Below, in pieces: positions 16,399-17,518 of a stretch of 64,000 bases of DNA. The stretch covers positions 1,178,001-1,242,000 of the forward strand of contig NW_027191454.1 of assembly GCF_011745625.1 (NCBI RefSeq). Reading direction: 5' to 3'. Position numbers and translations under genes: made by a program. This stretch comes from Cladosporium halotolerans. Lineage: Eukaryota. Numbering within the stretch: position 1 is the first letter of the stretch; each line of letters opens with the position of its first letter. The notes beneath the pieces were generated by a model, which was not told where the DNA came from, searched no databases, and saw nothing but the letters and a program-made list of their open reading frames with translations.

Positions 16399-17518
16399 CT
16401 AGAGTAGGCGTTGGCTCCAGTGCAGACCCAGAGCCCAGTGGAATAGCCTATGCGCGAATTAGTCCTCGATCGCTTCTTGAAATACGAGTATGGGCAACTT
16501 GCCTAGCATCCACAATCTTGCCAGGCTCTTTGGAAATCGCTGGGTGGAGACGTTACCATCTCGCATGCTGCTTTCGACATCGGGAATAAGTGTGCATTGC
16601 TCACCTTGGAGCTTCTCGTAGAGCTCGCTGATAGGGACGACCACGCGCTCGATGTGCTCTCCATCGTCGAGATGCTGCTCTGGCTCCTCTTCGTCTTCTT
16701 TGAGATCGACTTCCACCGTGACCATCTGTTCGATGATGTCAGCTTGTACTTCGTGCTCACTTCGCGATAATTGGTCGAATAGAGCCGATGCATACCTGCA
16801 TATTGGCGTTGGTCAACCCGGGATCGCTGACAATAGTCGGGCTGCAATCGACGACCTGTGACAACGTACCACCATGTTAGCACTGGTCATGCCAGGCTGG
16901 CTGCTCAAGGCAGGACTGCTGCTGCTCACCTGCCGAGGTTCGTTAGTTGAATTCGAAATCCTCTTTAGGTTTGCGAAGCCTACCTTGCCAGCATACCCCG
17001 TCTCCTCCTTCAACTCTCTGACCGCGGCCTGCTCGGGCGTCTCGCCTTCGTCGATCAGGCCAGCAGGGAACTCGACGCAAAATGCTTCGACGGGCGGGCG
17101 GTACTGCAGGATGATCATCGTGCTAACGGGCTTCTTCGGGTGCTTGAGGATGGGGACAATAGCCACTGCGTCGACACCACTAGATTTACGGGTCTTGCGT
17201 GCTGCAGCTTCCCAGATGCGCGCTTTGCCATCCTTGAGATCAGAATGTCAGCTGTATGGAGGTTGACTGCATGGCCAATGAATGTATACCTGGTCAGTCC
17301 ACTTTTGAAATGTCAGCTTTTGGAAGATTTCATGAATAGTTTTTCATCCAACGGTGAAGTACCTCAATCTTCCTCAACTCTGTCCATTTGGCCTCGTCCG
17401 CACTTAGCGGACCTACGCGGTTGATCTTGGGTGCTTGCGGCATCGTGAGAGTGCTGGCAGAGCGGATCGATCCGGCAATTGTACGTTGAAGGAAGTTCGC
17501 TCGGCGTAATAAACTCAT
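16399..17518 (-). CDS. YSA1: Nudix ADP-ribose pyrophosphatase (Ysa1/NUDT5-like) with alternative internal exons
   Basis: Nudix box GLIDEGETPEQAAVRELKEETG and QYRPP..EFPAG. Exons: 17518-17363, 17301-17290, 17232-16984, [16929-16870 or 16855-16796], 16725-16605, 16539-16503, 16447-16399. Ends KIVDARLFHWALG. Confidence 0.88.

Follow-up and report, generated by a model that had tools for sequence, protein, structure and literature searches.

Tandem homologous exons in a Nudix hydrolase gene of Cladosporium halotolerans as probable alternatives for one enzyme loop

A gene predicted to encode an ADP-ribose pyrophosphatase (ADPRase) of the NUDT5/Ysa1 type lies on the minus strand of a 64,000-nucleotide stretch of Cladosporium halotolerans DNA (the window; assembly GCF_011745625.1, contig NW_027191454.1, positions 1,178,001 to 1,242,000), and directly after its Nudix box it carries two exons of 60 nucleotides (nt), A and B, which are separated by 14 nt. 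The reading that we favour, and regard as rather probable, is that A and B, homologous and in tandem, are coding exons of this gene used as alternatives, with exon B as the default and a productive messenger RNA (mRNA) containing exon A alone being suggested by the selection under which A has been maintained. In animals, exon pairs of the alpha-tropomyosin exons 2/3 type are mutually exclusive homologous exons that arose by tandem duplication and whose exclusion is enforced by an interval too short to be spliced. Tandem exon duplication and mutually exclusive exons (MXEs) are treated as a general subject in the available part of PMC3342872. Genome-wide studies in fungi, as presented in the part of the source at hand, describe MXEs as almost absent (<0.2%) and question their relevance in this group (PMC6176087), and the accessible description of the Kassiopeia MXE database names Drosophila, Arabidopsis, C. 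elegans and human and no fungi (PMC3923563).

Results

The exon pair and its splice signals

All gene coordinates are window positions on the minus strand. Exon A (16870..16929, VSSSSPALSSQPGMTSANMV) and exon B (16796..16855, VVDCSPTIVSDPGLTNANMQ) share their length (60 nt) and phase (0), and 10 of their 20 residues are identical. When the whole window was scanned in six frames (about 128,000 windows of 20 residues), exon A was the best match to exon B with 10/20 residues, and the next best reached 7/20. The two exons agree at 34 of 60 nucleotides, distributed as 11, 15 and 8 of 20 over codon positions 1, 2 and 3; this is the pattern of old coding paralogues, and the similarity is beyond chance.

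Exon A is preceded by a 54-nt intron (16930..16983) whose donor is GTAGGC, whose branch point ACTAAC lies at 16947-16942 and whose acceptor is CAG. It starts with GTGAGC, contains the motif GCTAAC at 16881-16876 and is followed by a donor of its own, GTACGT (16869-16864), which opens the 14-nt spacer (16856..16869, GTACGTTGTCACAG); the spacer closes with the CAG acceptor of exon B (16858-16856). The 70-nt intron after exon B (16726..16795) has the donor GTATGC and a CAG acceptor, with GCTGAC at 16743-16738 as its branch point, and its acceptor could also serve the donor of exon A. On re-reading the sequence, the positions and peptides that the original prediction had assigned to exon A, the spacer, exon B and the branch point proved exact. 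The spacer had been called too short for an intron and frameshifting when retained, and both statements hold: real introns in the data are no shorter than 54 nt, and retention of the spacer in the window leads to a frameshift and a stop. Likewise, GCTAAC inside exon A is the only branch-point-like motif upstream of the acceptor of exon B, as had been claimed. Joining of exon A to the upstream exon re-creates a donor in the sequence (GGCAAG/GTGAGC). An antisense open reading frame (ORF) on the plus strand (16862-17266) was considered as a source of constraint and rejected, because it crosses an intron that varies freely in relatives.

Transcript evidence

Four sequencing runs were compared over positions 16350-17550 as assembled contigs, in which rare forms are lost. 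None of the runs is recorded as RNA; X2, X4 and X5, which represent three studies, were taken to be RNA on account of their spliced contigs, and X1 behaves as DNA of a related strain that spans exon A, the spacer and exon B with no differences listed there. In X2, X4 (as loose ends) and X5, position 16984 is joined to 16855, so that 128 nt comprising the intron, exon A and the spacer are skipped, and in all three 16796 is joined to 16725. The two junctions predicted for an exon B isoform were thus recovered in three runs, whereas the 16870/16725 junction predicted for an isoform with A alone was not found in the contigs. The form with exon B is the major mRNA form; since contigs drop rare forms, they bear on nothing beyond that and say nothing on the absence or the level of RNA containing exon A. 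The X4 assembly splits into two contigs with overlapping loose ends at the junction of the Nudix-box exon and exon B (16857, 16982). This break might reflect a graph branch to another isoform, but no contig of an alternative branch was present in X4 and the break carries no evidential weight.

Further transcript forms came from relatives. Entries P0008, P0009 and P0010 were counted as derived from complementary DNA (cDNA) because they are fully spliced and lie on contigs of about 1 kb. In P0009 (locus L025) the first intron has been removed, exon A, a 16-nt spacer and exon B follow one another, the next intron has been removed and the product is frameshifted, and in P0008 both exons have been skipped; the original claim that the two exons never occur together is contradicted by P0009 at the RNA level. 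P0010 contains exon B alone and comprises 19 member sequences on 11 contigs, and the further transcript-like entries P0025, P0064 and P0126 are also B-only.

Conservation of exon A among loci of the Cladosporium layout

A metagenome scan yielded 78 loci, 19 of which share the Cladosporium layout; together with the window they make 20 distinct spacer-type loci. The ratio of non-synonymous to synonymous differences (pN/pS) and the codon-position statistics refer to 19 of these 20, an intermediate with a 4-nt spacer (L058) being left out. The original prediction had named as its counter-evidence a duplicate that is unconserved or interrupted by stops or indels in relatives; exon A is open and exactly 60 nt long in all 20 loci and encodes VSGISPTLSSQPGMTSANMV or a near variant, and its pN/pS is 0.045, below one as had been expected. 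For exon B the ratio is 0.012, and 30-nt pieces taken from the exons on either side give 0.088 and 0.035. Variable columns of exon A fall on codon positions 1, 2 and 3 as 4, 1 and 10 (binomial p 0.0085). Among seven disjoint close pairs of loci, exon A shows 22 synonymous and one non-synonymous codon differences, and the introns of these pairs are 56-83% alike and contain indels. Exon A is under long-term purifying selection as protein. Gene conversion from exon B was considered as the cause of this conservation and rejected, because exon A retains residues of its own throughout the lineage (Q for D, LS for IV).

The splice signals are preserved along with the protein. The acceptor of exon A is YAG in 19 of 19 intron-bearing loci, and its donor is GTACGT in 19 of 20 (GTAG/GT in the twentieth, L058). 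Seven different hexamers occur at the upstream donor and four at the donor of exon B; the near-invariance of GTACGT against the seven upstream hexamers indicates that the donor of exon A appears to be selected. Exon B has a YAG acceptor in 20/20 loci and donors of the form GTA[TCA].., and the upstream and downstream introns measure 54-96 nt and 63-127 nt, respectively; in 18 related genomic loci the equivalent of the window's 54-nt intron has a length of 56-96 nt and a strongly diverged sequence. Exon A opens with GTGAGC in 19 of 20 loci and with GTGAGA in the other, both third positions being free to vary synonymously. The spacer varies between 4 and 23 nt and ends with YAG in every locus, the branch-point motif inside exon A is conserved as GCTAA[CT] in 20/20, and inclusion of both exons is out of frame in 19 loci and meets an in-frame TAG in the twentieth, which has an 18-nt spacer. 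Judged on these features, joining of A to B should be prevented in 20/20 loci by the size of the spacer, by the lack of a branch point within it and by the frame or a stop.

A second layout in which the two segments abut

In nine DNA loci (L001-L009) there is no intron before exon A and no spacer, and ...EGK, A and B are read in one frame; 31 read-through proteins are consistent with this abutting layout. Here exon A starts with GTGAGC, GTGTGT, GTTTGT or GTGAGG, all donor-like (GT[GT][AT]G.), ends with the acceptor-like CA[TC]CAG and has a branch-like TGAC[CG]AA[CT] 12-17 nt before its end. In these relatives it is an intron-sized 60-nt GT...CAG unit whose removal restores the frame. Indeed, B-only entries, transcript-like or annotated, exist beside read-through twins that contain A (P0025 and P0014; P0064 and P0054/P0062; P0028 and P0027), and in Zymoseptoria tritici P0027 is P0028 with the 20 residues of A added. 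The protein pattern V[CSR]xxSPxLSNQPGMTNAxxQ is retained in abutting-type A, with serine codons that switch between TCG and AGC/AGT, and one pair of loci (L008/L009) differs in A by seven synonymous and no non-synonymous codons. Intron position +5 is always G, whether the variable second residue is Cys, Ser or Arg, so that it seems determined by the splice site rather than by the protein. The first valine codon of exon B is GTA in 9/9 abutting loci (about five lineages) and GTC or GTT in 20/20 spacer-type loci; GTA at this place creates a donor at the A/B border of the abutting loci, which would yield an A-only product. The donor after exon B in L002-L004 is GCAAGT.

Intermediates between the layouts are L058, whose 4-nt spacer reads GTAG, and P0033 and P0202, in which A abuts the upstream exon and a frameshift precedes B. 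The named carriers of exon A belong to the Cladosporiales and Mycosphaerellales (Cladosporium, Zymoseptoria, Hortaea, Friedmanniomyces, Recurvomyces, Meristemomyces, Cryoendolithus), and one further carrier is a metagenome-assembled genome labelled as the lichen fungus Gomphillus. The tandem layout, whose conservation the original prediction had proposed to examine, is therefore shared by these two orders but does not extend to the Orbiliomycetes, Sordariomycetes, Leotiomycetes-like fungi and Pleosporales, which have a single B-like exon. As other classes have only this exon, B would be the ancestral copy and A the extra one. The single exon of Pleosporales (VVSSSPAVSADPGMTSANMV; P0127, P0130, P0133, P0135, P0139, P0142, P0143 and others) is, Asp versus Gln aside, nearer to Cladosporium exon A than to Cladosporium exon B; this likeness may reflect convergence or an older duplication.

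Taken as a sequence of steps, the pair may have originated by tandem duplication of a 60-nt exon segment bounded by GT...CAG, the Mycosphaerellales would have retained the original abutting in-frame layout, and the Cladosporiales would have gained the upstream intron and the frameshifting spacer. Living species would then display a series from an intron-like tandem duplicate through an in-frame optional segment to a frameshift-locked either/or pair, with a side branch in which one lineage has let the copy decay to a plain intron.

Annotated proteins

Altogether 229 proteins were classified, 225 from three database protein searches and four translated pieces of the window. Five contain A only, six contain A and B followed by the next exon, three contain neither (two of these being annotated gene models), and many annotated proteins contain B only. 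That automated annotation would miss an exon had been foreseen, and gene models do disagree. Segments of the A type matching V[CSR]xxSPxLSNQPGMTNAxxQ are open in the 31 read-through proteins and in 14 others. When the A-only proteins P0005 and P0041 served as queries in region-restricted searches of proteins, no transcript-derived A-only representative came up; the collection was clustered at 90% identity, so that an A-only form might sit inside a B-only cluster.

The enzyme and the exchanged loop

The family assignment made in the original prediction is borne out. The Nudix box GX5EX7REUXEEXGU is present as GLIDEGETPEQAAVRELKEETGY in the exon at 17232-16984, this exon matches the Pfam NUDIX family (PF00293, E 1.7e-13) and it is 93% identical to Cladosporium fusiforme P0005 and 92% to P0010. 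P0010, a close relative with the same exon B, matches NUDT5 chains in the PDB with E 1.1e-48 over residues 39-221, and exon B aligns with ...ECSPAVCMDPGLSN... of NUDT5, DPG included. By homology the gene product is a NUDT5/Ysa1-type ADP-ribose pyrophosphatase, its activity being predicted.

In both exons a proline stands as the 15th residue past the last tyrosine of the Nudix box, within QPG in exon A and DPG in exon B. According to the available part of PMC5389931, the X-loop lies about 17 amino acids (aa) past the Nudix motif; in ADP-ribose pyrophosphatase it touches the terminal ribose, and it carries the ADPRase proline and has been proposed as a determinant of substrate specificity. The exchanged segment had been predicted to hold this proline in a substrate-recognition loop, with which the X-loop as described there agrees, the loop's contact being with the part of the substrate that varies. 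For the A-only relative P0005, an AlphaFold model places exon A over a strand (139-143), a loop and the first part of the following strand (158-166). Made with a homologue alignment, the model folds as expected, with the loop at lower confidence, and is no proof that the isoform exists. By this model, the exchanged 20 residues correspond to the strand after the Nudix helix, the X-loop and the beginning of the following strand. QPG occurs in 31 of 32 distinct A sequences compiled by hand, the exception being QLG. Given this sequence difference, the A form could reasonably be expected to differ in specificity or regulation. Our literature search for the role of the DPG aspartate (NUDT5 Asp133/D133) found no relevant paper.

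Discussion

If A and B are alternatives as we suppose, the default splice would pair the donor at 16983 with the acceptor of exon B, so that A leaves within a 128-nt intron; the splice itself is seen in RNA, and it would use the GCTAAC branch point inside A. Alternatively, the same donor may pair with exon A's own acceptor by way of ACTAAC, an acceptor use that is seen in the relative L025. For the donor GTACGT of exon A the acceptor at 16726 would then be the only partner, since the acceptor of exon B is 14 nt away with no branch point between them, and the outcome would be an A-only mRNA for an enzyme with a QPG loop, as the selection on A suggests. Where the donor of B fired after inclusion of A, the spacer would be retained and the frame lost, which is seen once, in a relative. 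Exclusivity would follow from the shortness of the spacer together with the frameshift, and at the level of RNA it leaks. A possible extra route would start from the re-created AAG/GTGAGC donor and remove A together with the spacer (74 nt) in a second step.

A wider reading can be put forward tentatively, with somewhat less than even confidence: the loop-swapping exon pair would be common to Cladosporiales and Mycosphaerellales, born by a 60-nt duplication and locked in Cladosporium, and would provide two Nudix hydrolases (DPG and QPG), probably with different substrates, under conditions that have not been sampled. As part of the same joint proposal, the abutting upstream copy would serve as coding exon and in-frame intron at once, and the self-regenerating donor in Cladosporium would permit recursive removal. 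That one gene gives rise to two enzymes we infer from the sequences.

Several observations weigh against a productive A-only form. No contig of X2, X4 or X5 covers exon A, and the junctions are B-only in all three RNA-like runs, in contigs that drop rare forms. Among the RNA-like contigs and the transcript-like proteins an A-only transcript, in which the donor at 16869 is used, was found nowhere; the sole transcript with exon A, L025/P0009, is unproductive, and the A-only proteins (P0005, P0041, P0042, P0043 and P0069) are all genome annotations. The synonymous divergence (pS) of exon A is about half that of exon B (0.24 vs 0.45), which indicates that A is in part conserved as RNA, for its branch point and its GTGAGC start. 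Between the layouts, deep pN/pS is 0.42 for A vs 0.14 for B, with far more amino-acid change in A. Finally, in locus L016 (1749-2080) exon A has decayed to VCDMSPASSNQPG followed by a stop, within a 76-nt GT...AG intron. In the same locus an additional intron interrupts exon B within the DPGL/TNANMQ codons.

The loss of frame in L025/P0009 is also what would be expected if exon A were a regulatory poison cassette, whose inclusion with spacer and B gives a frameshifted mRNA that is degraded, tuning the level of the enzyme and providing no second one. We consider this unlikely, although the sole transcript with A has exactly that form, double inclusion is unproductive in 20/20 loci and the reduced synonymous divergence of A indicates constraint on RNA. 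A poison cassette leaves unexplained the codon-periodic conservation of exon A (22:1 in close pairs), the retention of residues despite switches between serine codon families, and the near-invariant GTACGT donor, of which the poison form makes no use.

Rather less likely still is that exon A serves mainly as a stepping stone of recursive splicing, with the AAG/GTGAGC donor used to remove 74 nt through GCTAAC, giving B-only mRNA, and A rarely or never translated. The GTGAGC start that persists in 19 of 20 spacer-type loci (GTGAGA otherwise) despite synonymous freedom would fit such a role, as would the splicing out of abutting-type A as a 60-nt GT...CAG unit (P0025 vs P0014; P0028 vs P0027). 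Recursive splicing, however, predicts no protein constraint in the middle of exon A, where SPxLSxQPG is kept amid synonymous turnover, and it has no need of a downstream donor belonging to A. The recursive route is compatible with the alternative-exon reading as an extra path and is not necessarily an alternative to it.

That exon A is a functionless dead duplicate of B inside a 128-nt intron is very improbable, even though the window's own sequence gave B-only mRNA alone and such decay is seen in one related lineage (L016), because A stays 60 nt long, open and near-invariant as protein in 20/20 loci while the introns have diverged beyond easy alignment, because it is found across two orders, and because the 20 loci are distinct haplotypes with differing intron lengths and not recent copies of each other.

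As in animal MXEs, the alternative exons favoured here are adjacent paralogues of equal length and phase with their own splice sites, the branch point of the downstream exon is placed against joining of A to B, and double inclusion breaks the frame. The differences lie in the ascomycete host, in the interval of 4-23 nt, in the branch point inside the upstream alternative exon, in the A-only product, which is here a predicted one, and in the leaky double inclusion and double skipping in relatives. From its sequence features the arrangement is best described as a fungal variant of mutually exclusive splicing, new in its host, its tiny interval and the branch point within an alternative exon.

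In vertebrates, recursive-splice exons are cassettes that, once joined to the upstream exon, restore a 5' splice site through their first bases. The AAG/GTGAGC at the start of exon A resembles this in sequence only, and the short fungal introns set it apart. A model in which introns arise when an AGGT-containing exon segment is duplicated in tandem has been described (PMC4974935, in the available part). The 60-nt unit of Mycosphaerellales, bounded AAG/GT...CAG/GT, agrees with what is available of that model, and removal of the upstream copy restores a single-copy mRNA; contrary to it, the 'new intron' stayed open, in frame and protein-constrained for a long time, and in Cladosporiales the copy became an independent exon that has an acceptor and a donor to itself. 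Compared with human NUDT5 (the Ysa1 likeness being by family), the gene shares the Nudix box, similarity over the full length and the DPG of exon B, but it offers a second loop version with Gln for Asp (QPG).

A possibly related case is CLAFUR5_05697 of Cladosporium fulvum, named Nudix hydrolase P35G2.12 / ADP-ribose pyrophosphatase, for which four transcript and four unique protein isoforms are listed in two isolates (PMC11694984; S5, S6, S11-S13) and, in S15 of the same source, no Pfam domain change. The count fits the four in-frame combinations, the likeness being by gene name only and the isoforms being given as counts without structures. Our literature search found no paper that joins an ADP-ribose pyrophosphatase with mutually exclusive exons, and for NUDT5 or Ysa1 it brought up no comparable alternative exon.

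The present pair may rank among the clearest comparative cases of MXEs in a fungus, no systematic search for other fungal cases having been made. Both copies and the alternative donor appear to have been held by long-term purifying selection in a group for which the part of the survey at hand deems MXEs almost absent (PMC6176087), and the exons exchange exactly the loop that has been proposed, in the available text of PMC5389931, to set Nudix substrate specificity. The Asp/Gln difference in the loop is directly assayable as a property of the enzyme. The inconsistent annotation of this gene across deposited genomes (A-only, B-only, both or neither) also matters to those who use them.

Remaining features of the gene

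The NUDT5/Ysa1-type gene has seven exons, exon A or exon B being counted as one, and spliced contigs (from at least one run each) confirm six of its seven introns, including the 128-nt skip from the Nudix-box exon to exon B; for the 54-nt intron that precedes exon A, splicing is documented solely by a relative's cDNA (L025). The first coding exon (17363..17518) ends with ...RKIE at 17363, and RNA contigs span 17363-17550. It contains two in-frame ATG codons, at 17518-17516 and 17443-17441, and a start at the upstream one adds a 25-residue extension rich in Arg, Ser and Leu (17444-17518, MSLLRRANFLQRTIAGSIRSASTLT). The relatives P0005 and P0010, both of 227 aa, are annotated or called from the upstream methionine. 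The extension looks like a mitochondrial presequence, and alternative start codons could possibly give the enzyme two locations.

A micro-exon of 12 nt follows (17290..17301, TGGACTGACCAG, WTDQ), whose letters are present in X2 and X4 contigs between 17234 and 17363. It is flanked by introns of 61 and 57 nt, the upstream one being retained in X5, and one or both of these introns are missing in several relatives. The Nudix-box exon (16984..17232, 83 aa, ...GLIDEGETPEQAAVRELKEETGYAGK) ends with ...EETGYAGK at 16984. Downstream of exon B and its 70-nt intron, which is skipped in X2, X4 and X5, sequence and RNA contigs place the next constitutive exon at 16605..16725, beginning with MVTVEV at 16725 (MVTVEVDLKEDEEEPEQHLDDGEHIERVVVPISELYEKLQ...). 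The last two exons (16539-16503 and 16447-16399, together 16399..16539) end with the stop TAG at 16401-16399 and are separated by a 55-nt intron (16502-16448). This last intron is of the GC-AG type (GCAAGT...TAG) and is skipped in X2, X4 and X5; the 5-nt ambiguity at its joint contains no GT. Beside the gene, a plus-strand ORF of 181 codons (18002-18547) appears acetyltransferase-like by eye from its translation.

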